Positions 4,254-62,910 are shown, numbered from the stretch's first letter. The stretch is DNA of 64,000 nt from a bacterium (GCA_021814165.1 JAKAIX010000003.1:14551-78550), one strand, 5' to 3'. The notes: generated by a model from the sequence alone, not told the origin. Translations and numbers: made by a program.

Positions 4254-4361
4254 CGTCTGGAATCTGGAATTAGGAGTTAGGGAATATTCTGCACAAAGAA
4301 TATCCCGTTTCCACAATTCCTAATTCCTAATTCCTAATTCCTAATTCCTTATTCGCGTTAG
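4254..4361. repeat. palindromic intergenic element with AATTCCT tandem repeats (hairpin/terminator between convergent genes)
   Basis: A perfect hairpin gggaatattct-gcacaa-agaatatccc is flanked by ggaattagg / cctaattcc arms. The unit aattcct is repeated four times in tandem (4316-4345). Confidence 0.7.
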
Positions 4362-5081
4362 TTATGCGCGCGCGGCAGTGAGGCCGATAATTTTTTTTGC
4401 TCCCGCTTTCTTCAATATTCTCGCCGCTTCCCGCATCGTCGCGCCGGAGGTGATGACGTCATCCACGAGAAGGATATTTTTCCCCCGCACAGGTTCCGGA
4501 TTCGTTACCGCAAAGCTTCCGAGGACGTTATTCACGCGCTCCTCCCGTTCCTTTAATGCGGTTTGTGAGGGAGTTGCCCTTGTCCTTATGAGTATGTTCT
4601 CGATTATCGGTATCTCGTCCGTGCGGAGCGTACGGGCAAGGAGGAGCGACTGGTTGAAACCGCGTCTTCGCAGTTTTCGCGGATGGAGCGGGATCGGGAC
4701 GATTACGAAATCGGAGAAGGAAATACCGCCAAGTTCCATGCTCAAGAGAAGATAACGGCGAAGTTCTTCCCCGAGCGGAGTCGTTACAACCTTAACCCCG
4801 TCATATTTGAAAAGATGGAGAAGTTCTCGAATTCTTGTGTTTCCGTAACTCCACGGGGCGATTCCCGTGAATCGCGTTCCCGGGTGGCAGGAAGGAACCG
4901 CGGGAGATCTCCGTCCGCATGAAGGGCAAAAGAACCCCGCCGGAAAATCAAATGGCAGCGTGCAATTTTTGCAAAGCCATCGCGCTCGCTCTCCCGTTTC
5001 GAGATGCGCGCGACAAGAAAGACAGCGCGGAGGGAAAAGCGCGTCTTCGAAAAATTGCCGGATGCGACGGAACGATTGCAT
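4362..5081 (-). CDS. comFC: ComF-family phosphoribosyltransferase (competence protein ComFC-like)
   Basis: The C-terminal PRTase motif (LLVDDVITSGATMREAARILKKAGAKKI) and an N-terminal Cys-rich zinc-finger-like region (C-x2-C ... C-x2-C) match ComFC. The ATG at 5081 is preferred because the longer ORF (to 5147) would overlap the divergent pilM start codon. Confidence 0.7.
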   Translation of the reverse strand: MQSFRRIRQFFEDALFPPRCLSCRAHLETGERARWLCKNCTLPFDFPAGFFCPSCGRRSPAVPSCHPGTRFTGIAPWSYGNTRIRELLHLFKYDGVKVVTTPLGEELRRYLLLSMELGGISFSDFVIVPIPLHPRKLRRRGFNQSLLLARTLRTDEIPIIENILIRTRATPSQTALKEREERVNNVLGSFAVTNPEPVRGKNILLVDDVITSGATMREAARILKKAGAKKIIGLTAARA

Positions 5082-7692: not shown

Positions 7693-7812
7693 GAAAAATC
7701 CTAAATCCTAATTTCTAAATCCTAAACAATGATCGAAATCCGAATGACCGAAACCCGCGTTTTGATCATTTGAATTTGTTTAGTATTTAGGATTTTGAAT
7801 TTAGGATTTCTT
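7693..7812. repeat. palindromic intergenic element with AATCCTA / TCCTAA repeats (large hairpin between pilus sub-operons)
   Basis: Left arm aaaatcctaaatcctaatttctaaatcctaaac and right arm gtttagtatttaggattttgaatttaggatttc are imperfect reverse complements. An inner inverted repeat (IR) aatgatcgaaa / tttgatcattt is also present. The composition is related to the 4254-4361 element. Confidence 0.65.
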
Positions 7813-20314: not shown

Positions 20315-21016
20315 TTATTTTGACAAACTGCCCTTAGTTAAAGAGAGCACAGCATCACGTAATCCCAAGACCTTATATTGAAGACGGGAGCTTTTTCTTA
20401 CTCGGATAACCAGGGTGCCAAAATGATTAAAAAAATTATCATATACTTTCTTATTTTTGGATTTTATAAAAATCGTTTTGTTGAATTGTCTTTTTGGTAC
20501 CCCGGTGATACGTGACCAGTGGAATAGTAACTCCTTTTCTCTTTGTGAGTGAATATTATTGATCATAACATTCAGGATTAAATCTCCTTTCTTCACCTTT
20601 AGTATTTTTATAAGCCAGAGGAGTGCGAGACGAACGAGCTCAGGGTTGGAATTGGTAAGTTGGAATTTATGTCCGCTTTTGTTTCCTTCTCCCAGATGGA
20701 GACCTATTCCCAGCATTAATAAATCGCGACCATCTACTTTCCGAACAATTTGTGTGCCTTCTTTTTGATACTCTTCCATAAGATGCATTTTCTTTTCTCT
20801 TTGCATCCTTGCCCCAAGCAATCTACCTTTATGTCCGCCTTCCACCATTCGACGCCTTAAGTTTTCCAGTTGTCCTTTCGTGAGAACTATATCTGTACAC
20901 CAAGCACTTGCAGTACTCTTCGAAATTCTTAGCTTGTCCGCAATTTCTTTTATGCTTGATCCCTTTCTCCTCATTTCCGATGCGAGTATTTTTTCTCTTG
21001 ATTTTGCCATAGTCAA
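20315..21016 (-). CDS. low-GC HTH protein with LAGLIDADG-like motif (putative free-standing homing-endonuclease-like / mobile gene)
   Basis: The N-terminus has a resolvase-type HTH (GSSIKEIADKLRISKSTASAWC). The body carries LLMLGIGLHLGEGNKS followed by a hydrophobic helix, resembling a LAGLIDADG core. The locus is markedly AT-rich versus flanking DNA and wedged between tRNA-Asp and tRNA-Met. Confidence 0.5.
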   Translation of the reverse strand: MTMAKSREKILASEMRRKGSSIKEIADKLRISKSTASAWCTDIVLTKGQLENLRRRMVEGGHKGRLLGARMQREKKMHLMEEYQKEGTQIVRKVDGRDLLMLGIGLHLGEGNKSGHKFQLTNSNPELVRLALLWLIKILKVKKGDLILNVMINNIHSQREKELLFHWSRITGVPKRQFNKTIFIKSKNKKVYDNFFNHFGTLVIRVRKSSRLQYKVLGLRDAVLSLTKGSLSK

Positions 21017-26540: not shown

Positions 26541-26620
26541 GGGCTTCGCCCCGCTCTCCTGCACGGGAGACTAGCGTGTTCTCCCGACCCCACTCCTGTT
26601 CGAGTACTGCGAGAGAAGAT

Positions 26621-26650
26621 AAAAATTCCCGGAACGAATCCGGGAATTTT
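26621..26650. terminator. bidirectional rho-independent terminator hairpin
   Basis: aaaaattcccgg-aacgaa-tccgggaattttt: a GC stem flanked by an A-run and a T-run. Confidence 0.6.
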
Positions 26651-26657
26651 TGTCTTG

Positions 26658-26730
26658 TGCCCCCAGCAGGATTCGAACCTGCGACCTTCTCCTTAAGAGG
26701 GAGCAGCTCTACCAACTGAGCTATAGGGGC
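26658..26730 (-). tRNA. tRNA-Lys (CTT)
   Basis: Reverse complement gcccctatagctcagttggtagagc...ctCTTaa...ggtcgcaggttcgaatcctgctgggggc-a. It is near-identical to the tRNA-Lys(TTT) at 61997 except for the anticodon and the T-loop. Confidence 0.85.
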
Positions 26731-26858
26731 CCTCCTCCGCTTTGATTGTATTATCAAAGCTTCGGACGGGCAAGAATGATGGATCATTATATTCTCGTCC
26801 TTCCGAAGCTCGAATATATTTTCGAGCGAAGGCGGGAGATGTTATCTTATAAATTAAT
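26731..26858. repeat. ~130-bp tRNA-Lys upstream segment duplicated (inverted) at 61866-61996
   Basis: Shared sequence with inner palindromes: cctcctccgctttgattgtattatcaaagcttcggacgggcaagaatgatggatcattatattctcgtccttccgaagctcgaatatatttt. Confidence 0.75.
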
Positions 26859-29862: not shown

Positions 29863-30012
29863 TGGACCCACGGGGAATCTCACGCGCTCGCTCTCACTCG
29901 CTTTTCAAAACCCACGGTTTTGAATCCGCTTCACTCATTCCTCCACGGGGAAACTCCCGTTTCCCCGACCCCTTTCCCACTCGGCAATGTTCACCCCATT
30001 AGACATTCGTTG

Positions 30013-30083
30013 TGGACCTAGGGAGAATCGAACTCCCGTCCCGGCAATGCGAATGCCGTGTTCTACCACTAAACCATAGGCCC
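30013..30083 (-). tRNA. tRNA-Ala (CGC)
   Basis: Reverse complement gggccta...cggca-ttCGCat-tgccg...gggag-ttcgatt-ctccc-taggtcc-a. The G3:U70 Ala identity pair is present. Confidence 0.8.
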
Positions 30084-30222
30084 TAATTTACCACCTATGT
30101 CTAATGGAGCGAATGTTCCCGATTTGTACGAAAATTCTAAAATTTTCGTCTACAAATCGCAATCCCGCTTGCGGGGCCGCGTAATACCACTTTACTATGG
30201 GCCCGTTGGTCTAGGGTGCTTG

Positions 30223-32885: not shown

Positions 32886-33144
32886 AAGTTGTTTCTAGAG
32901 TCAGAGAAAACTCCTCGCTTCTGCGGGGAGTTTTGTTGTAGGAGAATATTATCTTCCCCTCGTTCACAAACCTTCAAATATCAGGAACTTTGGTTCGCTC
33001 GCACGTTCCTCGCCATCCTGCTCGGCCTTACGGCGAGGGGCCTGACTCGGCGACGCGGCTCGCTCACAAGTTCCAAGGTATTTTCCGGTAATGTTCACTC
33101 GGAGAAGATAATATTCTATTTTCCTTCCTATTCTCTTTCTCATT

Positions 33145-33363
33145 AATGGATTTCTCTTTCTTCTGTCCGTGCCAAGTGCTTCGTTCATAATACTTTCACT
33201 GCATTCATCCTCGGAAAATTGAGGGGTTGTGCAACTCAACCTCATCCGCGCTTCGCGGATTCGGGATTCGAACAACGCACAACTCCCTCATTTCTCTCGT
33301 CTTTATGCAAGAAAGTATTTTATTCACTCCGCAAGGCACGGACAGAAGAAAGAGAAATCCATT
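33145..33363. mobile_element. MITE-like element: perfect 29-bp terminal inverted repeats flanking a 161-bp core
   Basis: Arm 33145-33173 (aatggatttctctttcttctgtccgtgcc) is the exact reverse complement of arm 33335-33363 (ggcacggacagaagaaagagaaatccatt). The core is non-coding. The element lies in the 5' leader of rplU. Confidence 0.55.
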
Positions 33364-33403
33364 CTTGCTTTTTTTTGCGGCCCCGTGTATTCTGAACTCT
33401 GTT

Positions 33404-33721: not shown

Positions 33722-33723
33722 AA

Positions 33724-33745
33724 AACGCCGGGGAGGCGTTTTTTG
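33724..33745 (+). terminator. rho-independent terminator after rplU
   Basis: aacgcc-gggga-ggcgtt followed by TTTT. Confidence 0.75.
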
Positions 33746-49971: not shown

Positions 49972-50000
49972 AAAATCCCCGGGACGACCGGGGATTTCTT
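49972..50000. terminator. bidirectional terminator between convergent genes
   Basis: aaatccccgg-gacga-ccggggattt with flanking A/T runs. Confidence 0.7.
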
Positions 50001-50053
50001 TTATAAAAATACTTTTCCGAGAATTACCGGCTTGATGCCGTTGTGGTTTCTTA

Positions 50054-50899
50054 TTAATTCTGGAAAATCTCCTTGATGTATTCTTTTCGCTCCGGCGTCC
50101 AACGGACGTACGTGTCTTCTCCCGGGTACATCCAGATGATATTCGTATTCGGAGAGGCAACATTTCGTATCTGATCCGCCGCTTCCCGCGGCGTCGGCCA
50201 TGAGGTAAGACCGTTACTCCTGAGAGATGCGAAAGCGTCGATGTAATTTCTCCAGGTTCCGCTTTCATAGAACGCGAGACCGTGCGTTTGGATGATCGGC
50301 TGGATTTCGAAACCGTCGCGTTCTATTTTTTCCGCCAGTCTCCTTTGGGATCCGTACATGCTGATTGCGCCGTAGATGGGGTAGTAATCGGGCTGGAATC
50401 CCGCAAGATGGAGATTGGGAATATTCAGAAGTTCCTCATAGGTTTCTATCCTCGGTGTTGCGATAAGCACTTTCTTGCCGGGGAATTTCTCCTTACTCCA
50501 GCCGATCCAACGCTCGATATCGCTGTTGTCGTAGTTACTCTTATGGAGATGCGGTTCGTCGAGTGCAAATCCCTCTACTTCGGATCGGTTTCCCAATATC
50601 TCCATTCTCTTGAAGTCATCGGGATGGAGTGTACCCGCGCTTACATACACCTTTAATCCTTCCTTCCCCGCCTCGTCGATCCTTCGCACCGCATCTTCTT
50701 CACTGAAGTTGCTGATAAGGACATAGCTTATGCCCAGTCGTTTCATTTCCGCGTAGTATGCGGGATTGTCGGCCGACCAGAAACCGAATTTGAGCGTCGG
50801 CGGGAGTTCATGGGATTGCGGCCGCTCGATAACGGAGAAGACAAGGAATATCAAGACGAAAAGCGCGGCAACGGAGAGGATATAAACCAGTTTTTTCAT
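50054..50899 (-). CDS. membrane-anchored putative glycoside-hydrolase-like TIM-barrel protein, function unknown
   Basis: N-terminal TM helix, then alternating beta/alpha character (GISYVLISNF...GLKVYVSAG...VLIATPRIETYEE). Low-confidence fold inference. Confidence 0.5.
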   Translation of the reverse strand: MKKLVYILSVAALFVLIFLVFSVIERPQSHELPPTLKFGFWSADNPAYYAEMKRLGISYVLISNFSEEDAVRRIDEAGKEGLKVYVSAGTLHPDDFKRMEILGNRSEVEGFALDEPHLHKSNYDNSDIERWIGWSKEKFPGKKVLIATPRIETYEELLNIPNLHLAGFQPDYYPIYGAISMYGSQRRLAEKIERDGFEIQPIIQTHGLAFYESGTWRNYIDAFASLRSNGLTSWPTPREAADQIRNVASPNTNIIWMYPGEDTYVRWTPERKEYIKEIFQN

Positions 50900-51825
50900 T
50901 TTTCCAACCTCCTTATGACCGCCTCGATTTTCGGCCAGAGTTGTTTGCGCATGAGTATCGAGCCGGTTTTGTGTTCCGGCTGTCGCGGAATTCCCAGGGC
51001 CTCGGAGAGTATCGCTTCTGATTTTCCGTCGATGGTAAGAAGTATGTTGTACCCCTTAAGAATATCAACGCCGGTAAAGAAAAAATATTCGAGATGTTCC
51101 TCTTTTCGAATGCGATTTAATACGGTAAGAAGCTCCTCTTTTAACGCGGTGAGGGTTGATTCGAGGTTAGCGATTTCAATCTGGGCGATGCAGGTTTTTT
51201 TGCCGCCGATCGTCTTTGGGGAAATATCCTGGAATATCACCTCATAAAGATTGTCGGCGGAAATGTTCGATTTTGATTCAAACATCCGTTTGGTGTAATC
51301 GTCGGGGAGGTCGATGAGTGTTTTGAGATAATCGGCGGCATTCTTGTCTCTTGCGGTTGTCACGGAATTTCTGAAATCCACCGTGCTGGAGACGATAGCC
51401 GAGTAGAGATACGTGGCGGTCTTGGGGGATGGTACAAACCCGTGTGTTTTGAGCCGCTCAACGATAAGTGTGGCGCATGAGCCCACCGGTTCTATGGTCT
51501 TTCGGGCGTTTATAAACTGCTCCGTGAATACGAGCTCGCGGTGATCGAAAAGTTCTATGACGTGCTCGGGGGAAATCGTCGGTTCCATTGCTTCGGGGTC
51601 CGCGGTATCAACCAGCACAAACCGATCGTCCGGGCCGTATTCTCCGGAATGTTTCTCGACGGGGAAGTAACCGGTGAATTGTTGTACGAATTTTACTTCA
51701 AGGCCGATATCGCCGTAGTAAACCGCTTTCGCGGGCATACCGGATGCGTTGAGAAATTCCGAGTAGGCGATCATGCATGCAATACCGTCGATGTCGGGAC
51801 AGTCGTAGGAAGTTACAATAGTCAT
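50896..51825 (-). CDS. DHH/DHHA2 phosphoesterase, family-II inorganic pyrophosphatase-like
   Basis: Motif I YDCPDIDGIAC, motif II VLVDTAD, a DHR in place of DHH (LFDHRE), and EPVGSCATLIV resembling PpaC. Confidence 0.65.
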   Translation of the reverse strand: MTIVTSYDCPDIDGIACMIAYSEFLNASGMPAKAVYYGDIGLEVKFVQQFTGYFPVEKHSGEYGPDDRFVLVDTADPEAMEPTISPEHVIELFDHRELVFTEQFINARKTIEPVGSCATLIVERLKTHGFVPSPKTATYLYSAIVSSTVDFRNSVTTARDKNAADYLKTLIDLPDDYTKRMFESKSNISADNLYEVIFQDISPKTIGGKKTCIAQIEIANLESTLTALKEELLTVLNRIRKEEHLEYFFFTGVDILKGYNILLTIDGKSEAILSEALGIPRQPEHKTGSILMRKQLWPKIEAVIRRLEK

Positions 51826-51960
51826 GCTGTTATTTTTATCTACAATACCTCGCCGCTTGCGGCGAGGATATACGTAGCAGATAAAAATATCCTGAGCCGC
51901 ATCGAAGGATTACCTTTCGTGGATACCACACCGCTTACGGTGCGATAATTCATTTTACCA

Positions 51961-51987
51961 AAAAACCGCCCGATTGGGGCGGTTTAG
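51961..51987 (-). terminator. rho-independent terminator
   Basis: On the reverse complement: aaaccgcccc-aatc-gggcggttttttgg. Confidence 0.7.
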
Positions 51988-52005
51988 AGACAACGATTCC
52001 GAGGT

Positions 52006-52707
52006 CTATTTACTGAACAATCTTACAAGCCAGCCGAACAAACTGAACGTGCTCTCCTGGGCCTGTATGAAGTTTTGGATCTTCGTTTGTTCCTGCGTTA
52101 ATACCTGAATCTGACTTTGGAGTTGCGTCTTGACCGCTTCATCCTTGACGTTTTCCGATAACTTGTTGAGTTGTTCCAATCTGTCTTGCGTCTGTGCCAC
52201 TTCGCTTCTCAATGTTCCAAGATTCTTGTAATCGGAACCGAAGAGAAATGTTGCAATTTTGTTTTTCGCCTTGACCTCTTCCATCGCCTGTATCGTGGTG
52301 GTTGCGGATTGATTCTGCTCTTCGGCAATCGTGCGCACCTCCTGTCCTATTCCTCCCTTTTCCTTGTCGGCAACATCCAAGAGTCCGTGGACGAAATTCG
52401 AGACCGTACTGCGATGTTCTTCGCCATTGATCTCTCCCTTATCTTCTCGCTCCTGTTCGTTGTTTTGATTCTCTCCTTCCGTCGTCGTTGCGTCCTGCTC
52501 ATGATTTTCCCTTTCCATCGTCGATGTATTCTGTTCCCGATCTTGTTCTTGGTTTTGAACCTTATATCCCGCCTCTATTTTGTCTCCGCCCCCGGATTGT
52601 TCGTTATCTTCCGCGACCGTCTGCTTGTTTTGGCTCGCGGCATGGACGCTGATCGCAACGGCAAAGACAAGAATCCACATTCCTGTTGCTATGACTTTAT
52701 TTTTCAT
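52006..52707 (-). CDS. secreted/membrane-anchored coiled-coil protein with acidic Glu/Asn/Gln-rich region, hypothetical
   Basis: TM/signal helix (VIATGMWILVFAVAISV), an acidic low-complexity segment, and a C-terminal coiled coil. The ORF track extends the frame to 52812. Confidence 0.5.
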   Translation of the reverse strand: MKNKVIATGMWILVFAVAISVHAASQNKQTVAEDNEQSGGGDKIEAGYKVQNQEQDREQNTSTMERENHEQDATTTEGENQNNEQEREDKGEINGEEHRSTVSNFVHGLLDVADKEKGGIGQEVRTIAEEQNQSATTTIQAMEEVKAKNKIATFLFGSDYKNLGTLRSEVAQTQDRLEQLNKLSENVKDEAVKTQLQSQIQVLTQEQTKIQNFIQAQESTFSLFGWLVRLFSK

Positions 52708-52842
52708 ACGTGAAAGAAAAATTACTGAACTGCCGACCTTTCCTCTATTATAGCGGATTAAACAATGGATGTCTCGCTCTCGTTTTGAAAGCTTATGTAC
52801 CGAATAATACAAACCCTCTTTTGTGAAAGAGGGTCTTTTGGT

Positions 52843-53202
52843 CTAAAAATTTGCTCTTGGCATCCCACTCAAAAAAGCAGTGAGCCATAACATCCATGCA
52901 AACAGCGAGAACCGGGTGAAATAGCTCTCATATCTCCCTTGTTTTCTGATAGCAAGAAAAGCCCAGGAGAGATGAAGCAACATTATAAGTAACGCGGAGT
53001 AACCCGAAATGACGTGGGTGCTAAGAGCGAACTTATGTTCCGCTCTTAGAAACATCATTGAAGTTCCGGCGAGATCACATATGAATCCGGAGCTGAATAC
53101 GACGACCATCCATCTCTTCAATCTTCTGCTGATTCTCTCCGACCAGATTGCGGTCGTGTAGAGAACCAGTGCGCTGACTATGAACAATACCGCTATAATC
53201 AT
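52843..53202 (-). CDS. small integral membrane protein (4 TM), hypothetical
   Basis: Strong RBS GGAGGG 6 nt upstream of the ATG at 53202. Four hydrophobic helices. Confidence 0.6.
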   Translation of the reverse strand: MIIAVLFIVSALVLYTTAIWSERISRRLKRWMVVVFSSGFICDLAGTSMMFLRAEHKFALSTHVISGYSALLIMLLHLSWAFLAIRKQGRYESYFTRFSLFAWMLWLTAFLSGMPRANF

Positions 53203-53473
53203 GATCACCCTCCTGGTTATAAGGGAGGACGAGAAAGTGAATGGAGGTACATAGCAGCCATTGTGATTATTCCTCCCAGTATGAGTGACAGAATTATCAC
53301 CCACTCTAGCTTCTTTTCTGATATTGCCATTTCAACCTCAGAATTGTTAAAGATACAGATAAAGTACCACGCTTGCGGCATTCGTCAATGAAAACAATCA
53401 GGGTTCTAAAAATGCAGATCTTTACAAGAAATAGGCAAATAGGCAGAATAGGTAGTAACTAGCTCTTTAGGAG

Positions 53474-54049
53474 ATGAATATGAATATCGACATCAAGTCG
53501 CATCCGGTCTCGGTGTTGCAGCCGTTTTTCAGAGATATAGCCCTTGTTCTCGGTTCATCTGCAATGCTCGAGTTCAGTTACTATAAGTACCAACCGCAGA
53601 CGCTGGAGGACGAGCGAAAACTCTTCAAGGTAAATATTACGGATGTCACTCCGGAATGGTTTTTTGAAATCCATCAGAAGATAGAAGAAGGATACGAACT
53701 TGCGATGCACTCGCGAGTATGGAATGGAAACGAGATGAGGCACATGTTAATGGCTGATATGGCGGTTAAGAACAGCCGGATGGACTTGCTTCCAAGAAGA
53801 ATGTATCTGCCGAGTCTTCAGAAATCCGTACAGCCGCACTACTTCAATTCCGGCCGCTCGTTCCATTCTTATGTCCCCGTTCTGACCTCGGATGATGACG
53901 CGCTAAGAAAATTTTTCTGCGACCTACTCATCCACCACAGCCAGCTTTTTGATGGCAGATGGATGGGACACCGCCTACTGGCAGGCTACGCCGCGTTGCG
54001 ATGGAGTTGCAATACCGGGCAGTATCGCTCCGCCCCAAGATTGGTTTAA
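53474..54049 (+). CDS. hypothetical protein (no recognisable motif)
   Basis: 191-aa ORF with coding-like composition, ending ~120 nt before the glycosyltransferase start. Confidence 0.4.
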   Translation: MNMNIDIKSHPVSVLQPFFRDIALVLGSSAMLEFSYYKYQPQTLEDERKLFKVNITDVTPEWFFEIHQKIEEGYELAMHSRVWNGNEMRHMLMADMAVKNSRMDLLPRRMYLPSLQKSVQPHYFNSGRSFHSYVPVLTSDDDALRKFFCDLLIHHSQLFDGRWMGHRLLAGYAALRWSCNTGQYRSAPRLV

Positions 54050-54167
54050 AGAGAAAGAGGTTGCTTATATCGGCAACCTCTTATTATTTAAGACGATTTC
54101 ATCAGGTTTTCCGTTTTTTCTCGCTTTGCCGTTGTGGTATCATGGAGCAGTAATAGCGCGTGATATT

Positions 54168-55274
54168 ATGGTTATTTCAATTCCCTCATTCGGGTTGAAC
54201 ACGACGGGCGGCGACAGAGTGATTGTATCGCTTGCAAACGGTCTTGCGGAGAGAGGGCATACGGTCTATGTGGTGAATCTCGGGGCGGATCCCATTCCGT
54301 ATCGCGTTTCTCCGAAAGTCCGCATCACGCGGGTCCCGTTTGATGAAGATAAAAAGGATTTTTTGAACTTCGTCGTGAAGGGAATGACGGAACTCGCGAA
54401 TCATCTTCCCGATTCGGATGTCTACCTCGCGAACTGGGTATTCACCGTCTTCTCATGTGTCGCGAAGCGCGGCAAGGGAAAGACGGTATTTCTTTCCCAG
54501 GCGGATGAGATGTATGCGTTTAAGGACCGATCACTCAGCGTTTTAAACGGACTTTCCTACGGGGCATACCTTCTTCGCGCCCCGGTAATCGTGCCGTCCG
54601 ATTCGTTGCGGAAAATAGTGAAAAAAAGATTCGGCAGCGAGGCCCTGATTATTCCTCCTTGTGTCGATACGAGCGTTTTCAAGCCGGGAGCGCCGCACCG
54701 CTCCGCCGTGTTGAAGCTGCTCTTCGTGGGCGACATAGAGAGTGAAAACAAGGGGCTTGCCATACTTCTTTCCGCATGCGAGAAGATAAAAAACATCCGC
54801 TTTGAACTGCACGTTGCCACTCAGCGGAACATTACGCCGAACGACATCGCGCCGCGGGCGAAGTTTCCCGTTGTCATTCATAAGCCGGAAAACGACGAAG
54901 CGCTCGCCCGAGTATACCGTTCAAGTGATATATTCTTTCATCTTTCGAGGAAAGAAGGGTTCGGTCTCACTCTCCTTGAAGCGATGGCATGCGGATGCGT
55001 GAGCATCGTCACGGATTCCGGAGGCGTAAATGATTTTGCGGTGTCTAAGGGGAACTGTATTTTTGTAAAAAGGGACGGCAATTCCGTGGCGAGGGCGATT
55101 CGTTCCGTTTATGCGGATTTGAGGCGTCTGAGAAAAACACTCGGGAAAAACGCGGTCCTCACGGCGGCGCGCTATACGGAAAAGGAGATGACCGACCGTT
55201 TCGAGGATTTTTTCTTCGAGATATCGTCGAAAAAGCATGGCAAAAAGGAAAATAGGAATATACGTCGCTCATGA
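54168..55274 (+). CDS. glycosyltransferase family 1 (GT4)
   Basis: The N-terminal GT-B start MVISIPSFGLNTTGGDRVIVSLANGLAERGHTVYVV and the C-terminal motif EGFGLTLLEAMACGCVSIVTDSGG are present. Confidence 0.8.
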   Translation: MVISIPSFGLNTTGGDRVIVSLANGLAERGHTVYVVNLGADPIPYRVSPKVRITRVPFDEDKKDFLNFVVKGMTELANHLPDSDVYLANWVFTVFSCVAKRGKGKTVFLSQADEMYAFKDRSLSVLNGLSYGAYLLRAPVIVPSDSLRKIVKKRFGSEALIIPPCVDTSVFKPGAPHRSAVLKLLFVGDIESENKGLAILLSACEKIKNIRFELHVATQRNITPNDIAPRAKFPVVIHKPENDEALARVYRSSDIFFHLSRKEGFGLTLLEAMACGCVSIVTDSGGVNDFAVSKGNCIFVKRDGNSVARAIRSVYADLRRLRKTLGKNAVLTAARYTEKEMTDRFEDFFFEISSKKHGKKENRNIRRS

Positions 55275-55917
55275 CGACGACGCAATTATAGGAGCGGGAG
55301 GAACGATCGTAAAAACGCGGGCGGAAGGAGGGGAAGTATACGTGGTTATCGTCACCGACGGGGCAAACTCGCATTCGAGCGTTTTTGGCTTTGAGGAACA
55401 CCCGAGTAAGGAAGAAGTGAAGGCAAAACGGAAAGAAGAAATAAAAAAGGCGATGCGCGTGCTTGATGTTTCTCCCGAATTCGTCTTTTTTCTCGACCGA
55501 CCGGACGGAAGAAACGATATCTGGGGAGGGGATGAGAAACTTTTTGGAGACATTCTCGCGATAACCGAGCGCGAGCGCCCGGACGCCGTCTATTCGAACT
55601 ATACGTTCGATCCGCATACTGATCACGTGGCGGTAGGGAAGATAGTGGAGGGCATACTCGGGAGAATGAGCCGGACGCCGGAAGCTTTCCAATTCGCGAT
55701 TCAGGGGATTATCGAACGCCCCGATCGGGTTGTTCCGATTGCGGATGTGGTGGAGAGAAAAAGACAAGCGCTCTTCGAGATGAAAAGCCAGGTGCTTTCG
55801 GATCCGTACGAAAACGAAGGGTGGCGGAAACAGCCGCGCCCCATCCTGTCGGAAGATGAGGTGCAAAAGTTTTTGAGCGACAGAGAAACGTTCCGGGTTT
55901 TAAAAACCATCGGATGA
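55237..55917 (+). CDS. PIG-L/LmbE-family N-acetylglucosaminyl deacetylase
   Basis: IGIYVAHDDDAIIGAGGTIVK (HxDD motif) and the downstream HTDH metal-binding motif are present. Confidence 0.8.
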   Translation: MAKRKIGIYVAHDDDAIIGAGGTIVKTRAEGGEVYVVIVTDGANSHSSVFGFEEHPSKEEVKAKRKEEIKKAMRVLDVSPEFVFFLDRPDGRNDIWGGDEKLFGDILAITERERPDAVYSNYTFDPHTDHVAVGKIVEGILGRMSRTPEAFQFAIQGIIERPDRVVPIADVVERKRQALFEMKSQVLSDPYENEGWRKQPRPILSEDEVQKFLSDRETFRVLKTIG

Positions 55918-56052
55918 TTTTGATTGGAACGTCGCTATCCGACCAGGCTCGAATCCATCCGTCGTAATCCTATTACTCTTGGTGATGGGATGCGTGAAAC
56001 TTCCTGGTAAAAAATAAGCACCCCTCTTTCGAATGAAGGAAGGGCGCTAGTT

Positions 56053-56427
56053 TTAGATAAAATTTAAGAAGTAGTGCAGAACAGCTCCTGCGACGAGTGC
56101 TGCAGCAGCTCTCAATATCATCTCCTTATAGAGAGTGATTAGTTTCCTGCCCCTTGTAGCTCCTTCCTCTTCCGCCTCGATTTCAAGGTGGTTGTGATTC
56201 CTTTTCACCCTGTAATCGTGTTTCACGAAAGCGAAAAGGAGGTATATTCCTGCGCCTTGAGAAAGCGTGAGTGCCGGGACGAAGTGGAATGTTCCCGTCA
56301 CGAACCACAGCCATAGCACTTTTAGCACGAAGCCGTGGATTAGCGAACGGAGGAGGAATCCTCCCGCCCCGGTAAGGTGAACGTCGAAGAAATTAAGAAA
56401 CTTCTTCTTTCCTTTTAGCGTTTTCAA
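56053..56427 (-). CDS. small membrane protein (3 TM), hypothetical; TTG start behind RBS GGAGA
   Basis: Sits downstream of conserved promoter P1. RBS ataGGAGAatagaaTTG. Hydrophobic helices GGFLLRSLIHGFVLKVLWLWFV and AAAALVAGAVLHYFL. Confidence 0.5.
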   Translation of the reverse strand: MKTLKGKKKFLNFFDVHLTGAGGFLLRSLIHGFVLKVLWLWFVTGTFHFVPALTLSQGAGIYLLFAFVKHDYRVKRNHNHLEIEAEEEGATRGRKLITLYKEMILRAAAALVAGAVLHYFLNFI

Positions 56428-56476
56428 TTCTATTCTCCTATGAAATTGGTAAAAATCTAAATGTTTAAGTGAAAAT

Positions 56477-56505
56477 AAAATAGCACATTTCTGTGCCATA
56501 GTCAA
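56477..56505 (-). promoter_or_regulatory. conserved sigma70-like promoter P1 (TTGACT-17-TATTTT) with embedded CACAGAAATGTG palindrome
   Basis: Reverse complement TTGACTatggcacagaaatgtgcTATTTT. The same 25-nt core recurs at 58637-58665 and 61030-61053. Confidence 0.6.
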
Positions 56506-56560
56506 CCTCAACTTTACCTCTCTGTTAATTTCTCCCTTAAGATCCGCCCATTCTTGCTTC

Positions 56561-57343
56561 TTAAAGCTTTTCAAATATGTAACCTCTGGCGCGAATTGCA
56601 GGTACGATCTTCCGCAATACGTCGTAGCTTGCCGGAGCGTTCGGTCCTCCTATGTGCATTAAAATAACACCGTTGTTCTTTAATCGCGCAAGAATGTGGT
56701 TCGCTATTCTGTTTCCGTCCGGATTAAAAGGGTCAGACGCAAATATATTTCCTTCGTTGATCTCGAGTCCTAAGCTTTGTACGAGCGCGTCGTCTCCCTT
56801 TCCGCTGCAAAGACCGGGGTATCGGAAGTAGCGGGGTTTTTGTCCGGTAATATGCTCCAGAATCGTCTGTGTTTCTTCGATCTGCGCTATCTTTTCCTGG
56901 GGAGTAACGAGGGGAGTAAGCCAATAGCAGTGAGGAATGAAACCGGACTCGTCATAGCTGTGATTTTGGAAAGAAAACATTGTTGTGCTGGCAAGAGAAC
57001 GCATGAGATCGGGATATGTCTCGGCAAAAAGCCCAGATACAAAGAAGGTGGCGGGAATCCGTTCTTTCTCCAGATATGCGAAGATGCGCGGATCATACCA
57101 TTCTTGTACCAGCCCTTTTTGGTACTTACGTAGCATGGCCTCGTTCATGTCCATATCCATGGTGAGGAAGATGGTTTTGTGGGATTCTGCGATCGTGCCG
57201 CTTGCAACCGCCATAACGGTAGATACCGGCATATATGAGGAGGGATCCGCACGTCTCTGGTATGCCGAATGGAACGCGGGAATGTAGGCACATAACAAAA
57301 ATATGAATACGGCACCGGGTAGAAGAAAAATTAAATGTTTCAT
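56561..57343 (-). CDS. polysaccharide deacetylase (NodB/CE4 family), secreted
   Basis: Signal peptide present. The motifs TFFVSG (Asp/His motif 1 region), HSYDE/H-x-H-like and RYPGL are characteristic of CE4. Confidence 0.75.
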   Translation of the reverse strand: MKHLIFLLPGAVFIFLLCAYIPAFHSAYQRRADPSSYMPVSTVMAVASGTIAESHKTIFLTMDMDMNEAMLRKYQKGLVQEWYDPRIFAYLEKERIPATFFVSGLFAETYPDLMRSLASTTMFSFQNHSYDESGFIPHCYWLTPLVTPQEKIAQIEETQTILEHITGQKPRYFRYPGLCSGKGDDALVQSLGLEINEGNIFASDPFNPDGNRIANHILARLKNNGVILMHIGGPNAPASYDVLRKIVPAIRARGYIFEKL

Positions 57344-57662
57344 GTACTGCCGCGATTTGATTTAAATGTCATTATAATGGCACAGCTTATACAAAGACAC
57401 AAAGAGGGAGGAGAAATTCGAATCCTGCATGAATGCATCAAGACGACATCCGAAAAGCAAGAGCTCCTCGGTCGCACGATAACAAGAATCGACCACCCCT
57501 CTATGTGGACAAGTTCAGAGCCGTGGAGTGGGGGAAAATTGAAAAGAGACCCACATTTCTACTGGTTAATTATTCATTTCGGAGGGTCGCTTAGGATCCT
57601 TAAAAAATAAAGAGCAGCCTTCAATAAAGCTGCCCTCATAATTACTTGATTATTAGCTAAGA

Positions 57663-57992
57663 CTAAGAGAGAAGTTCTCTTGCCTTAGTTTCAACAACTT
57701 TTTTCAGCTTATCCTCGTCTACAAGGGTTCTGACGATAGGATTCGAAGGTTGAATGTTTAAAACAGCCTTCTTTTCTTCCACTCGTATGCTACCCTCTAT
57801 CTTGGCGCGTTTGAACCCTTGTTTGACTTTGAAAGAGAAAATCATCAAGTTGCCGATCCGCCAGAGTTTTTCCGGATCCTTTATTTCCACCTTCTTATCA
57901 GAAAAATCTTTCTTCATTAGTTCGGAAAGAAAGTTATCGATCCTTTTGACTGCCTCGGTTGTACCGAGATTGTGTGATATTGTTATTTCCAA
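57663..57992 (-). CDS. polyhydroxyalkanoic-acid-system family protein-like (TIGR02610-type small protein), function unknown
   Basis: MEITISHNLGTTEAVKRIDNFLSELMKK...KIEGSIRVEEKKAVLNIQ parallels the small PHA-system family (M.I.I.H.LG...EG.i.vee..i.v.l). A terminator follows at 57611-57645. Confidence 0.5.
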   Translation of the reverse strand: MEITISHNLGTTEAVKRIDNFLSELMKKDFSDKKVEIKDPEKLWRIGNLMIFSFKVKQGFKRAKIEGSIRVEEKKAVLNIQPSNPIVRTLVDEDKLKKVVETKARELLS

Positions 57993-58013
57993 GTTGTCCT
58001 CCTTAGGAATTGT

Positions 58014-58532
58014 TTATTTACTGTGTGTAACTTTGTGTATGACAATTTCGATGCCAAAATTCGGATCGGTATATTTTCTGAGGAGAAGATCTTTTATTTC
58101 AAGCACGTATGCAGCCTCGTTTGGATCTGAGAGTTCCTGGATAGCCTCTTCTACTGTTTTACCGGTAGTGCTTATGTTTCTGTTAAACCAGGTGTTCGAG
58201 CGCCAAAGGCTAAATCTCACCTTTTCAAGATCGTATTGTTTTATCATACCGATTTCCTGACCATCGGCTGCTATTAATATAAAACGAAGGTTTTCTATCC
58301 TGTCCGGTCTTCTCAGACGCCGATTCCACGCACTTGTCCATGGATAGCGGGACATTAGATCAGAGTCGGCCTTCTGAACCTGCGGTACTTTATGCAATTT
58401 TTTGATCTCTGGGTATCTCTTCAGAAAAGGATATTCCTTCAAAAGCGCATCGATTCGTATATTCAGTATGCTTTTTTTGACAACATCGATGATCATTTCT
58501 GCGAGTAATTCTGTTTCTGTCTTATCTCTCAT
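58014..58532 (-). CDS. hypothetical protein (172 aa) behind conserved promoter P2
   Basis: RBS AAGGAG 7 nt before the ATG (MRDKTETELL). Coding-like composition; no recognised motif. Confidence 0.6.
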   Translation of the reverse strand: MRDKTETELLAEMIIDVVKKSILNIRIDALLKEYPFLKRYPEIKKLHKVPQVQKADSDLMSRYPWTSAWNRRLRRPDRIENLRFILIAADGQEIGMIKQYDLEKVRFSLWRSNTWFNRNISTTGKTVEEAIQELSDPNEAAYVLEIKDLLLRKYTDPNFGIEIVIHKVTHSK

Positions 58533-58636
58533 AGTTTTCTCCTTGTGACATCCAGCCACAATTTACGAAGTGGGTATTCCACCCGCTTCAGAGTTGTTGA
58601 ATTTGTTAAATAACACCCGATAGATTGGGTGTAAAG

Positions 58637-58665
58637 AAAATAACACATTTCTGTTCTATTGTCAA
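58637..58665 (-). promoter_or_regulatory. conserved promoter P2 (TTGACA-17-TATTTT) with ACAGAAATGTGT core
   Basis: Reverse complement TTGACAatagaacagaaatgtgtTATTTT. Followed by a ~100-nt 5' UTR containing the hairpin acacccaatctatcgggtgt. Confidence 0.6.
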
Positions 58666-58818
58666 CTTTAATTCCGAGCTGTACGTGAACTTCGAACCGT
58701 AATAATGGACGGCTGGCACTCTTACGAAATGTGCGCGACCGTCAAAATGCTCCGCCGGGAGTTATCGTTCGATTGGATTGATTAAAGATTTTCTTCAATC
58801 TGATAATATGTACGTTCG

Positions 58819-59331
58819 TCATATTTTTCGGCTGTCGTATGCCCAGTGCAGAACCGCCTGCCTTTGTGCAGGCCGGCAAGTTAAATCTTTCGGCCGGCAA
58901 TTCTTTTTGATTTGCGATATGTGTCGGCTGATCGCTTTCCACCGCTTGATCTGCCGTTCGTCTTCGCCCGGAAGCCGCCTGCCCATGTAGTAGCGACAAT
59001 ACCACTGGAACCAGCCGCGAGGGTCGTGCTTTTCGTTGATCCAACCTTTCTCAACCCAGACTTTAAGCGGCTGGCTAGCATGCTTATGGAAAAAGTTGAG
59101 TGTGTCGTCGTGATGTTCTAGTGAAAGCTTGGCGCGAGTAAACCAGTCTTTTGGAAATTCCTTTTTGCAGTCGGTCATATATTTGCCGCCAAAGACGCCG
59201 AGCGCGAGCATCTGTTTTGGCGTAAGCTCCGGCTTGAAATCCGGATGAAAATTCCGTCCTACCGGTTCGGTAAGCTGGTACTTGTAACCTTTCTGAAATT
59301 TATCGTTTACTTTTACGGTCTTTTTTCTCAT
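58819..59331 (-). CDS. conserved hypothetical basic protein (GWFQWYCRYYMGRR motif)
   Basis: 170 aa, Lys/Arg/Trp-rich, with no TM helix. It is upstream of and probably co-transcribed with the P2 unit. Confidence 0.55.
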   Translation of the reverse strand: MRKKTVKVNDKFQKGYKYQLTEPVGRNFHPDFKPELTPKQMLALGVFGGKYMTDCKKEFPKDWFTRAKLSLEHHDDTLNFFHKHASQPLKVWVEKGWINEKHDPRGWFQWYCRYYMGRRLPGEDERQIKRWKAISRHISQIKKNCRPKDLTCRPAQRQAVLHWAYDSRKI

Positions 59332-59340
59332 AAATATTTG

Positions 59341-59799
59341 TTATCGGATTACAAGATATATGGCCAAGAGAAGCAATCCGCCCCACCAGCCGATATCGGA
59401 GACAATGAGGCTTGCCATGATTTTCCTTTGCCAGGAAGCCGGCAGGAGTTCTCCGGACAGGCCCTCTTTCTCACGCTTCAATAAAAACGGACTGACTTTG
59501 AAAGACAGAAAATAGCCGTTCAAGATGAGGGCGAGCGCGATCACCGCATGGATGAGCGGAATGCCGGCAAAGCTTTGCTCGCGGTAGAAAATCATACCGC
59601 CGATAATAGCGAGCATAATGCCGGCCCAGATCATCGGCTTAGTCACTTTGTGCGTGCGTGTAGTAGCTTCGGTCCAGTATGATGACTTTCGTCCGAGAAA
59701 ACCGTGGATATCTATGACCGTTACCGCTCCAAGGCCGATCACGAAACCGGCGAAGAATAGAAATAGTCCGATTGTATCGAGCCATTCGACCGAGCTCAT
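59341..59799 (-). CDS. integral membrane protein (4 TM), hypothetical
   Basis: Hydrophobic helices (IGLFLFFAGFVIGLGAVTVI; MIWAGIMLAIIGGMIFY; IHAVIALALILNGYFL; GWWGGLLLLAIYLVI). Confidence 0.55.
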   Translation of the reverse strand: MSSVEWLDTIGLFLFFAGFVIGLGAVTVIDIHGFLGRKSSYWTEATTRTHKVTKPMIWAGIMLAIIGGMIFYREQSFAGIPLIHAVIALALILNGYFLSFKVSPFLLKREKEGLSGELLPASWQRKIMASLIVSDIGWWGGLLLLAIYLVIR

Positions 59800-59808
59800 G
59801 ATAATAGA

Positions 59809-60285
59809 TTAATTGAGAACATAAATTGAATAATTTAAGTACATGGCAAAACTAACCCATGCTATGTAAGGCACCAAGAGCCATGCCGTCGGACGAGATA
59901 TTTTTGCAAAAGCGATGATCGTGGCAAGAATAGCAAGCCAGAGGAATATGATCTCAATAAATGCGCCGCCCGGAGAATGCAGACCGAAAAAGATAATTGA
60001 CCAAAGTGTGTTCAATACCAACTGGCCGAGAAATATGCCGAGGGCAATTTTTACATCCCTTCTCACAAGCCCCTTTTTCCAGACCAGAAACGCGGCGATG
60101 CCCATGAGCGTGTAGAGTGTCGTCCAAACCGGACCGAAGACCCACGCAGGAGGATTTAGAACCGGTTTGACGATCCCGGCATACCAAGTCGGGATGGCCG
60201 AGGCGGTAAAAATCGAACCGATTATTCCAGCCGCTTCTGATACCACGATCGCAATAACCAATTTGAAGAAATTATTGAGCTTCAT
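59809..60285 (-). CDS. tspO: TspO/MBR family tryptophan-rich sensory protein
   Basis: 5-TM protein with PAWVFGPVWTTLYTLMGIAAFLVW (W-x-PP-x-W-x-F-x3-W-x2-LY signature) and 158 aa. Confidence 0.75.
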   Translation of the reverse strand: MKLNNFFKLVIAIVVSEAAGIIGSIFTASAIPTWYAGIVKPVLNPPAWVFGPVWTTLYTLMGIAAFLVWKKGLVRRDVKIALGIFLGQLVLNTLWSIIFFGLHSPGGAFIEIIFLWLAILATIIAFAKISRPTAWLLVPYIAWVSFAMYLNYSIYVLN

Positions 60286-60467
60286 AATTCAATTTTACCA
60301 TTTACTGCTATTTTCGTCCTAGTCTACCGGGGCGAGTTTGGTGGTATTTGTCAATCTAGCTTAGTGGATAGAACGCGTGAGGACTTGTTTGGTGTAAAAT
60401 AATGAACCGCTAAGAAAAAATCTTAGCGGTAAGCAGTCGGTCTGCTTAGTCCTTTGAAGTTATACAC

Positions 60468-60962
60468 CTAGGAGAAGAGGGGGCCGGCGATACTAACACC
60501 GATAATGTGTGGTGAGAGGCTCTTTTCCGATCTCGGTTGATAAGAGACGATTTTCCAATCTTCTCTTATAGCAAGAGCCCCATGTTCTGTGCCGACTATA
60601 TTGTGTGCTGTTGCCCAGAAAAGTTGTTCGAGGATATCGGCCTTCTCTTCAAGCGGCTCAAGCTTGCTTTTGAACTTTTTGCATTCTTCCGATACTCTTT
60701 CTAATCCGTCGCCTTTTTCGTCTCTGAGCGCGTCACGCAGAAGACCGGGCAGATCCATTTTCTTGTGAAACAGTCCGTGTTCTGTTTTTAGAGTGTTTAT
60801 TTCTTGGACCATTTTCGAATGTAGAGAATAAATCTTCTTCATTTCATCGTCTGCCTCTCCGACGATCCTTTCTTCCTCGAGTTTTTCTCCCGCTTTTTCA
60901 GGGGCGATGATATCAGTAACACCATTGATCTCATTAGAGAGACCCTGCAAAAAACTAGTCAT
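60468..60962 (-). CDS. acidic coiled-coil hypothetical protein behind conserved motif P3
   Basis: RBS AAGGAGG 7 nt before the ATG. Glu/Lys-rich helical protein with no recognised domain. Confidence 0.5.
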   Translation of the reverse strand: MTSFLQGLSNEINGVTDIIAPEKAGEKLEEERIVGEADDEMKKIYSLHSKMVQEINTLKTEHGLFHKKMDLPGLLRDALRDEKGDGLERVSEECKKFKSKLEPLEEKADILEQLFWATAHNIVGTEHGALAIREDWKIVSYQPRSEKSLSPHIIGVSIAGPLFS

Positions 60963-61029
60963 TTGTGACCTCCTTCGGTTGATGGTTAGTTAGATGGATA
61001 AGGAATTATGAAATTGCAATAATAGAGTG

Positions 61030-61053
61030 ACACATTTCTATGCTATTTGTCAA
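61030..61053 (-). promoter_or_regulatory. third copy of the conserved CACATTTCT-N-TGTCAAC motif (P3; -10 element degenerate)
   Basis: Plus strand gacacatttctatgctatttgtcaacg. The TTGACA -35 and the AGAAATGTGT core are retained, but the -10 is poor (CACTCT) or displaced (TATTAT, 23-nt spacing). Confidence 0.45.
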
Positions 61054-61236
61054 CGTTTCGGCGGAGTTTCACCCGTATCTGAACTCTGCAGGTAGGACTC
61101 GCTTCTCGCGTTGCTCGAAACACTCAAAAAACATAGTCGTTTCACTCCTTGTTTTTGGGTGCCTCCGGTTCAAGCTCTACCTGTACGAAACAGAAACCAA
61201 AATACCGCACCATAAAGATGCGGCATTTTGATTTTT

Positions 61237-61308
61237 GCTCCGGCGGTAGGATTCGAACCTACAACCATCTCCTTAACAGGGAGCCGCACTACCATTGTGC
61301 TACGCCGG
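61237..61308 (-). tRNA. tRNA-Asn (GTT)
   Basis: Reverse complement tccggcg-ta-gcacaatggtagtgc...ctGTTaa...gtagg-ttcgaat-cctac-cgccgga-g. A terminator hairpin gccgcatctttatggtgcggtatttt lies downstream. Confidence 0.85.
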
Positions 61309-61451
61309 AATACAGCTATAAGAATAATAACAACAAGGCCCGATGTAAAGTACTCGGGCCCGTTATTCTAGTTACTTAGGAGTTTTAATATTTATTTTTT
61401 GAATTGTTTGTTAAGGTTGCTAATTTATCGTAATTCAATTATAACGTTCTT

Positions 61452-61823
61452 ATGGAACGCAAGGAATTAATCAGAACTATTTATCTATATCTCTTCTCGC
61501 TCGTGGGACTGGTACTGGTAATAATCGGACTTGTCCAAGTCGTGGATCTCGGTCTCAAGTCCCTCGTGTTTACGAACGCGGATCAAGTCGTCATCTATCC
61601 TTCGTACCCCGTAAAACCGGTGCCCTCATCGATCGACGAAAAACAGGCCCAACCGACGCCGGAAGAGCTTGCCGACTACGAGAGGAAACAAGCGGAGTCG
61701 CAGCGCGCCCAGGAAGCGAGTAACAAAGCACGCACCGCGTCAAATGCGCTTGCGATGATTATTATCGGTACCCCGCTTTTCCTGTATCACTGGAAGACGA
61801 TCCAGAAAGACAAGAAGGCCTAG
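61452..61823 (+). CDS. small membrane protein (2 TM), hypothetical
   Basis: TM helices at the N-terminus (LYLFSLVGLVLVIIGLVQVV) and C-terminus (LAMIIIGTPLFLY), with a charged middle region. Confidence 0.5.
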   Translation: MERKELIRTIYLYLFSLVGLVLVIIGLVQVVDLGLKSLVFTNADQVVIYPSYPVKPVPSSIDEKQAQPTPEELADYERKQAESQRAQEASNKARTASNALAMIIIGTPLFLYHWKTIQKDKKA

Positions 61824-61865
61824 ACGTCCTATTTGAGGTATTTGAAATTTAGAATTTTAAGTTTA

Positions 61866-61996
61866 GAATTCTAACGAGCCCCTATAGCTTCCTCCTTCGC
61901 TCAAAAATATATTCGAGCTTCGGAAGGACGAGAATATAATGATCCATCATTCTTGCCCGTCCGAAGCTTTGATAATACAATCAAAGCGGAGGAAGG
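61866..61996. repeat. inverted duplicate of the tRNA-Lys upstream segment (partner of 26731-26858)
   Basis: Near-identical to the reverse complement of 26731-26858 (ttcctccttcgctcaaaaatatattcgagcttcggaaggacgagaatataatgatccatcattcttgcccgtccgaagctttgataatacaatcaaagcggaggaagg). It is preceded at 61868-61881 by a 12-nt echo of the tRNA 5' end (gcccctatagct). Confidence 0.75.
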
Positions 61997-62069
61997 GCCC
62001 CTATAGCTCAGTTGGTAGAGCTGCTCCCTTTTAAGGAGAAGGTCGCAGGTTCGAGTCCTGCTGGGGGCA
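61997..62069 (+). tRNA. tRNA-Lys (TTT)
   Basis: gcccctatagctcagttggtagagc...ctTTTaa...ggtcgcaggttcgagtcctgctgggggc-a. CCA is not encoded. Confidence 0.85.
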
Positions 62070-62074
62070 CAAGA

Positions 62075-62110
62075 TAAAATCTCCGGATTCACTCCGGAGA
62101 TTTTATTTTC
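62075..62110 (+). terminator. rho-independent terminator after tRNA-Lys
   Basis: aaaatctccgga-ttcac-tccggagatttt followed by a T-run. Confidence 0.75.
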
Positions 62111-62226
62111 CTCTATTGACAATAAAAACTGGTTATGGTGAACTACGCTTAGCTACTAAATAACACTTACTTGGAGCTTCCGAAACGTAGTAGGAAGTGG
62201 AGGGTAAGTAGGAAAAGGAGTACACA

Positions 62227-62826: not shown

Positions 62827-62910
62827 CTTTATAAAAGAATCATTGGCTAAGCCGGAGCATTTTTACCCCGGCTTAACTGTTTTTATGGGCTTGCTTTTTA
62901 TCAACTCCGC

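Follow-up and report, generated by a model that had tools for sequence, protein, structure and literature searches.

The 64,000-nucleotide stretch of bacterial DNA analysed here (hereafter, the window) carries a long palindrome, hairpin B, between a membrane-protein gene and rplU, the gene for ribosomal protein L21. We tentatively read hairpin B, with a confidence that stays a little below an even chance, as a solitary, species-specific non-coding DNA palindrome that arose in situ within a hypervariable and probably untranscribed spacer. We slightly prefer growth in place by template switching over the arrival of an orphan MITE (miniature inverted-repeat transposable element), and under either of these readings hairpin B is not a regulator of rplU. 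The preliminary description of this locus had offered a MITE-like element or a structured regulator inside the rplU 5' leader; judged from sequence comparison, the leader reading appears refuted and the MITE reading unproven.

Hairpin B in the gap between a terminator and a putative promoter

Hairpin B is bracketed by two exact reverse-complementary 29-mers with 161 nt between them (Table 1), and both the coordinates and the complementarity given in the preliminary description were verified, as was the position between the membrane-protein gene (Pfam MS_channel_1st_1) and rplU. Dinucleotide-preserving shuffles of the window lead one to expect 0 matches for such a 29-mer pair, and with up to three mismatches allowed these two arms remain the only matches to the 29-mer in the 64 kb. 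Pairing extends far past the 29-mers, the 219 nt forming one long imperfect hairpin; when hairpin B is aligned with its own reverse complement, the outer 29 bp are perfect and the interior is ~65-70% matched, with indels. With RNA parameters the + strand folds at -106.9 kcal/mol (z -12.7) and the - strand at -118.9 kcal/mol (z -13.4), and with DNA parameters the fold reaches -61.6 kcal/mol (z -12.3), so that the very long RNA hairpin predicted for a transcript of the element is borne out in silico (z about -13). Even folded alone, the 161-nt core is still significantly hairpin-like (z -6.0 / -7.3), with a 7-bp stem and a 3-nt loop at its centre (33244-33260). G-U pairs make up only 2-5 of 79-86 pairs, and hence both strands fold about equally, as those of a DNA-level palindrome would; the same scarcity defeated an attempt to tell the transcribed strand of hairpin B from G-U asymmetry. 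The GC content of hairpin B is 0.447, against 0.50-0.54 in the flanking genes.

Table 1. Features of the junction between the membrane-protein gene and rplU (positions in the window)
Feature	Position	Strand	Basis or remark
Membrane protein, 225 aa, mechanosensitive-channel-type conserved TM helix	32208..32885	+	ORF, Pfam PF05552
Intrinsic terminator of the membrane-protein gene, AAAACTCCTCGC-TTCT-GCGGGGAGTTTT then GTT	32907..32937	+	predicted stem-loop
424-bp block missing from L006/L017	32938..33361	.	alignment
Hairpin A, 175-bp long imperfect palindrome	32943..33117	.	outer 14 bp perfect; 21/26 outer positions pair
AT-rich polypyrimidine spacer, 27 bp, between A and B	33118..33144	.	
Hairpin B left arm, 29 nt, AATGGATTTCTCTTTCTTCTGTCCGTGCC	33145..33173	.	
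Hairpin B core, 161 nt, itself an imperfect palindrome	33174..33334	.	no tRNA/Rfam match
Hairpin B right arm, 29 nt, GGCACGGACAGAAGAAAGAGAAATCCATT	33335..33363	.	last ~19 nt resemble L002 spacer
Putative rplU promoter	33365..33393	+	-35 TTGCTT 33365-33370, 17-nt spacer, -10 TATTCT 33388-33393
rplU, ribosomal protein L21, 105 aa	33404..33721	+	Ribosomal_L21p

The element was said to have no protein-coding capacity, and we concur: the ORFs that cross it have no Pfam match, and the 103-aa minus-strand ORF across it, which found only itself in the protein search, is spurious. A likewise spurious 74-aa gene call spans hairpin A and the start of hairpin B and recurs on 16 contigs, all of them the same locus.

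Directly upstream of hairpin B lies a second long palindrome, hairpin A, which the preliminary description had overlooked. It is the same in all assemblies of the species and shows no similarity to hairpin B or to other parts of the window. Apart from A and B, the only palindrome there to exceed about 100 nt is a repeat-built hairpin at 7696-7809, the rest being terminator-sized. Hairpin A, the spacer and hairpin B together make up the 424-bp block of Table 1. Within it the 10-nt motif TTCTCTTTCT occurs three times, in the spacer (33131-33140), as a direct repeat in the left arm of B (33152-33161) and inverted in the right arm (complement of 33347-33356); compared with shuffles, the excess of nested repeats in the block is non-significant (p about 0.09).

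The setting of the block is conserved. The gene order membrane protein, rplU, convergent recR, dnaB, cysS is kept down to ~60% protein identity, the membrane-protein orthologues retaining their synteny with rplU, and the terminator upstream of hairpin A is kept in relatives, with changes on both sides of its stem in the alignments. rplU forms a monocistronic unit: it has a terminator of its own at 33722-33745, and no rpmA follows it. Fourteen of 16 relatives carry TTGnnn, a ~17-nt spacer and TA(T/A)nCT ending 9-10 nt before the rplU ATG, the bases between -35 and -10 varying among them, and in the window the corresponding pair is the sole match to TTGnnn-16/18-TAnnnT on either strand of the 518-bp intergenic region. 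From this conservation we infer that TTGCTT-17-TATTCT is the rplU promoter and that the mRNA would be essentially leaderless, as the rplU promoter in this group as a whole appears to make it. The public rplU gene call of 118 aa, which starts at the TTG at 33365, that is, in the -35 hexamer, probably extends the gene by 13 codons too many. The last base of hairpin B, 33363, lies 1 nt upstream of the -35 hexamer. Because the -35/-10 pair lies downstream of it, the hairpin stands upstream of the putative promoter and outside the leader; with a predicted terminator before A and this promoter after B, the two hairpins would fill the terminator-promoter gap, apparently the one part of this intergenic region that can be dispensed with.

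The junction in related genomes

For comparison across species we defined the spacer as the stretch from the terminator T-tract to the -35 hexamer and determined it in the four nearest species, in L040 and in the outgroup pair. The four nearest species are 88-90% identical to the window in the nucleotide sequence of the membrane-protein gene (dS 0.40-0.58), and L040 is 84% identical in nucleotide and 95% in protein sequence. The spacer measures 0 nt in L006/L017, 32 nt in L040, 60 nt in L002, about 100 nt in L010, about 190 nt in L019, 424 nt in the window and about 660 nt in L018, and in more distant relatives the whole intergenic region of 73-107 bp consists of terminator and promoter only. 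In L006, a 94%-identical relative, GAGTTTTGTT is followed immediately by TTCTTGC, the terminator T-tract touching the -35 hexamer, so that the window differs by one clean extra block, GAGTTTTGTT[GTAGG...AATCCA]TTCTTGC.

Hairpin B is absent from L006, L040 and L002, and L018 and L019 have unrelated hairpins in its stead. The L018 junction holds two, of 204 nt (3087-3290) and 287 nt (about 3416-3702), with outer arms matched at 28/29 and 21/24 positions, and the L019 junction holds a perfect 20-bp palindrome (about 3302-3345). In local alignments judged against shuffles, none of these hairpins aligns with A or B (z < 1.5). At dS 0.4-0.6 neutral sites would be expected still to be about 65% identical; with no alignment despite this divergence, the hairpins are not conserved orthologues. 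A search of the L018 intergenic region with Rfam returned only a sub-threshold match of plant-miRNA type, which amounts to a generic long hairpin. Different long hairpins thus turn up at this junction, a hot spot with a hypervariable spacer of 0 to about 660 nt; hairpin-rich expansions, unrelated in sequence, are found here in five of the seven species of this small Patescibacteria clade. No switch of GC skew occurs near 33 kb, so that by skew the locus is not at a replication origin or terminus.

The A-B region is 100% identical in the NCBI, the ENA and four Logan assemblies made from different runs. Such identity across independent assemblies indicates that the sequence is real rather than an assembly artefact and that it has reached fixation in the population sampled; the locus does not differ among samples of the species, and no excision polymorphism was seen among them. 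The membrane-protein gene is identical on 11 public contigs, including contig DAIBYN010000001.1 (599,737 bp) of GCA_027423925.1, and homologues of its product are labelled Patescibacteria or Candidatus Jorgensenbacteria.

One contig that looked like a 99%-identical strain (P0123/L039) was rejected as a chimeric Logan contig of the window species and the L019 species. Up to ~nt 535 of the membrane-protein gene, this contig (L039, from Logan SRR13240876) matches the window species at 100% identity; from there on, over gene positions about 535-678 and the 155 nt that follow, it matches the L019 species at 100%, and it ends in the middle of the perfect palindrome of L019. Most likely it is a de Bruijn-graph chimera of two co-occurring species, the alternative being a real recombinant; a chimera would also account for the ending of contigs L013-L015 at that place (L016 stops earlier).

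Competing accounts of the origin and role of hairpin B

Two accounts can be set aside with little hesitation. According to the preliminary description, hairpin B was located inside the rplU 5' leader and might be a structured cis-regulator replacing the usual L21 leader, that is, an autoregulatory structure co-transcribed with the L21 mRNA. Its place directly upstream of rplU, shared with the Rfam L21_leader, and the very stable RNA hairpin that it would form if transcribed speak for such a role. However, it lies upstream of the promoter rather than downstream, the conserved -35/-10 pair following it 9-10 nt before the ATG; it is not conserved even in the closest relatives, from which it is absent; and no covariance model, that of L21_leader or of any other family, matches it even at E up to 10, leaving this account with a very small probability. 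We rate as equally improbable that hairpin B represents a degenerate tRNA, a tRNA-derived element or an assembly artefact. The motif ggattcgaac, pointed out earlier as resembling a tRNA T-arm, is indeed present in the core (33264-33273), but its flanks form no T-arm stem, ARAGORN finds no tRNA in the region, and Rfam, applied with the gathering threshold to the whole window and with E up to 10 to the intergenic region, has no match in the region. Palindromes can be assembly chimeras, and one chimeric contig was indeed encountered here (L039); against an artefact, at least five samples and three assembly pipelines yield the identical sequence, which sits within a 600-kb contig. Even taken jointly, a leader, a tRNA-derived element and an artefact amount to only a slight chance.

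The account that we prefer invokes template switching during replication at inverted repeats (inverted duplication or quasipalindrome correction), by which one arm is copied onto the other. A stem would be created from native spacer sequence and then extended outward, so that the outermost 29 bp would be the youngest, and hence perfect, and the interior older and decayed. The promoter-proximal right arm would be native and the left arm its reverse-complement copy. Hairpin B would have no dedicated function and would be tolerated, as a presumably neutral presence, since the gap is probably untranscribed; its possible side effects would be an added barrier to read-through from upstream and a change of sequence where an UP element of the rplU promoter would lie.

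What points to such an origin is, above all, the right arm. Its last ~19 nt, GAAGAAAGAGAAATCCATT, resemble the promoter-proximal spacer of L002, GAAAGAAGAG-AATCCCTT, although L002 has no hairpin B; the identity is 82% over 45 nt, promoter included, and p is about 0.001-0.006 in anchored tests with composition-preserving shuffles as the control, for a similarity that is short, of low complexity and borderline after correction for ten comparisons. L002 also shares the 10-mer TTTCTGCGTG with the right arm of the second L018 hairpin, at a matching distance from the -35 hexamer (p about 0.01-0.04). This resemblance suggests a native promoter-proximal arm from which the other one was copied; given a native right arm, the perfect left arm has to be its reverse-complement copy, which is the signature of template switching. 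Growth outward from the base would, in addition, account for the outer arms being the most perfect in B, in A and in both L018 hairpins, and the scarce G-U pairs and the thrice-occurring 10-nt motif are consistent with a palindrome at the level of DNA. Template switching is known both to create hairpin stems and to make imperfect ones perfect (PMC8794818, PMC7202029, PMC5941160, PMC13100816). Like the quasipalindrome mutations so described, hairpin B has perfect arms beside an older imperfect palindrome, no flank duplication and a locus-specific occurrence, with one arm perhaps native and an apparently unique sequence without copies in what was searched. The described arms are, however, usually ~5-50 nt long, against ~100-nt arms and 219 bp in hairpin B (PMC8794818, PMC7202029, PMC5941160, PMC13100816). 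This mechanism copies nearby sequence only, which leaves the source of ~200 nt of new sequence per hairpin (~100 per arm) unexplained, and it must assume several rounds of switching plus divergence; the block bears no significant nested-repeat signature, the 60-nt spacer of L002 could be the deletion remnant of an inserted element, and the anatomy of hairpin B (29-bp repeats, a 161-bp core, dG about -110 kcal/mol) matches MITEs such as QMITE2 (PMC10969869).

That last point leads to the principal competitor, to which we assign a real, if smaller, likelihood, perhaps a third of our belief: hairpin B might be an orphan MITE or foldback element, or the relic of one, inserted in the permissive terminator-promoter gap, with hairpin A and the hairpins of the sister species being independent insertions of other such elements. 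MITEs are defined as shorter than 500 bp, with terminal repeats of 4-30 bp, non-coding, intergenic, AT-richer and forming a stable stem-loop, and QMITE2 of Coxiella burnetii has terminal repeats of 23-29 bp, a core of 113-145 bp and a dG of -113 (PMC10969869). Hairpin B fits this definition and closely resembles QMITE2; it shares its size, 29-bp repeats, non-coding core and whole-length stem-loop with QMITE2, the Correia elements of Neisseria and ERIC (PMC10969869), and, as with prokaryotic MITEs, it is intergenic, beside a terminator and a promoter, of lower GC, with a second element alongside. The presence/absence difference against L006 is clean, and the sequence of hairpin B has no local source. 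That MITE copy number may go down to 1, that MITEs cluster and that their flanking direct repeats fade with age (PMC10969869) are all compatible with what is found here. The MITE-like anatomy and the lineage-specific insertion put forward in the preliminary description thus hold, whereas other copies and a clear target-site duplication were not found in what was searched, nor a partner transposase in the window.

The search for copies bears most directly on this possibility. No second copy of hairpin B was detected in the 64-kb window (blastn with word size 7, nhmmer) or in L038, a further 8.8 kb of the source genome, the two together covering about 73 kb, with ~88% of the genome outside. Among collections scanned for exact 20-24-mers only, GTDB representatives had 0 matches to an outer 24-mer (the source species is not in that collection), JGI metagenomes had one unrelated chance match to an inner 20-mer (the source species is not in JGI either) and IMG/VR had 0 matches to 24-mer and 22-mer probes; blastn against phage and plasmid collections likewise gave 0 matches. 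In Logan assemblies, which are de Bruijn graphs, no 31-mer occurs twice within one accession (PMC12424806), and four Logan k=31 contigs run unbroken through recR, rplU, B, A and the membrane-protein gene, with unique flanks; had those samples contained a near-identical second copy, the contigs would have been interrupted at the borders of B, and the intactness of both ends thereby argues against a mobile family. The preliminary description had proposed that the 29-mer be looked for elsewhere, dispersed copies favouring a MITE and a unique, conserved region with compensatory changes favouring a regulator; since the 29-mer looks unique and the region is not conserved in that manner, neither alternative describes the locus as stated.

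No obvious target-site duplication had been noted before, and we too find none that is unambiguous in the flanks CTCATT and CTTGC; relative to the empty site of L006 the 424-bp block lies within TTTT without duplication, a 2-bp TT duplication being possible. Domains of transposases, integrases or reverse transcriptases are absent from the about 50 ORFs of the window. The only lead is an ORF at 20318-21016 (-), of 233 aa and located between tRNA-Asp and tRNA-Met, which has a weak N-terminal IS630-like helix-turn-helix (23 bits in NCBIfam, where the cut-off is 100; Pfam HTH_23), without a catalytic domain or repeats that match hairpin B. Unlike prokaryotic MITEs, then, hairpin B is apparently single-copy, has no family in the searched collections, no partner insertion sequence seen in the window and no clear target-site duplication, and its right terminus looks like native sequence of a relative that lacks it; the orphan-MITE account moreover needs four or five single-copy families to have hit one gap in sister species. 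REPINs and BIMEs, REP doublets that RAYT transposases mobilise, offer a further comparison, being likewise extragenic hairpin-forming units after a terminator with conserved outer parts and a variable middle, but REPs are 20-40 nt long, reach copy numbers of tens to hundreds and are accompanied by a RAYT gene (PMC3116915, PMC3333891), whereas hairpin B is apparently single-copy and no Y1_Tnp-type domain is found in the window ORFs. In our literature search, no publication on MITEs or on long hairpins in Patescibacteria came up.

There is, lastly, the scenario in which hairpin B is a selected structural element whose structure is conserved without its sequence, for example a transcriptional insulator or extra terminator for the rplU promoter, a cruciform at a supercoiling-sensitive promoter, or a dsRNA processed by RNase III. 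We consider it unlikely. Five of seven clade species do have a hairpin-rich junction with unrelated sequences, the outermost pairing of B, A and the two L018 hairpins is complete or almost complete, shuffled controls fold much less well than the hairpins, and, as tRNA genes here sit in long extended stems, processing of long helices may be routine. On the other hand, L006 lacks the spacer, L040 has 32 nt without a hairpin and the distant relatives make do with their short intergenic regions; neither strand has a promoter-like site that would drive A or B; read-through should be blocked beforehand by the strong upstream terminator; and the T-run, which is part of the promoter spacer, starts 5 nt past the stem of hairpin B, a poor geometry for an intrinsic terminator. 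The very few G-U pairs, and the absence among samples of the within-species variation that covariation requires, do not favour this scenario either. Nothing was found in support of a dedicated function of hairpin B; an extra barrier to read-through or a promoter-near cruciform is possible, and the recurrence of hairpins at the junction is the only hint of such a role. We are similarly doubtful, and slightly more so, that the long hairpins (175-290 bp, with near-perfect outer stems) arise repeatedly upstream of a leaderless rplU and persist on account of structure, not sequence; such recurrent hairpins could represent a new insulator at the DNA or RNA level, or else a site-specific, sequence-independent insertion or growth of hairpins undescribed in bacteria. 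About as small, or a little smaller still, is the chance that none of the accounts considered here is correct.

If in-situ growth by template switching is what happened, hairpin B would be an unusually large and clean case of the birth and growth of a palindrome by this route in natural bacteria; if it is a MITE, it would be among the first reports of a miniature mobile element from Candidate Phyla Radiation bacteria. The junction hairpins are set in a reduced-genome lineage that tolerates almost no spare DNA, and the recurrence of long, sequence-unrelated hairpins at one junction of such a genome is noteworthy despite there being no conserved function and no family.

Other hairpins and repeats in the window and in relatives

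Several further structures were encountered. The tRNA-Ala(cgc) gene of the window (29981-30122) is flanked by a 33-nt inverted repeat, and tRNA-Pro(cgg) has a perfect ~15-bp extension of its acceptor stem in L002 (394-497) and in L019 (2075-2176), which differs between the species yet pairs in each (GGTAATACCATTTGG vs GGTGATATCCTTTGG); these extended stems suggest a conserved helix for pre-tRNA processing. A 223-bp segment is duplicated at 93% identity (26611-26832 on the - strand and 61894-62113 on the + strand); it comprises a terminator-like hairpin and tRNA-Lys with flanking sequence, the anticodon being ctt in one of the copies and ttt in the other. The hairpins at 7696-7809, directly in front of the ATG at which a type IV pilus ATPase gene starts, and at 4259-4354, which are intergenic, are built of short tandem units and their complements, of the AAATCCTA type and the GGAATTA/TAATTCC type.

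From about 50000 to 64000 (including 53474-54049) the GC content of the window falls from about 0.51 to 0.43-0.48, and this part, which has an archaeo-eukaryotic-primase-like gene and many ORFs that match no family, may have been acquired as an island. In the Saccharibacteria relative L034 there are long intergenic hairpins at 4301-4399 (99 nt) and 4746-4899 (154 nt), one of them built of repeated AAAGCTCAAATACCAAA-like units, and long intergenic hairpins may be common across Patescibacteria.
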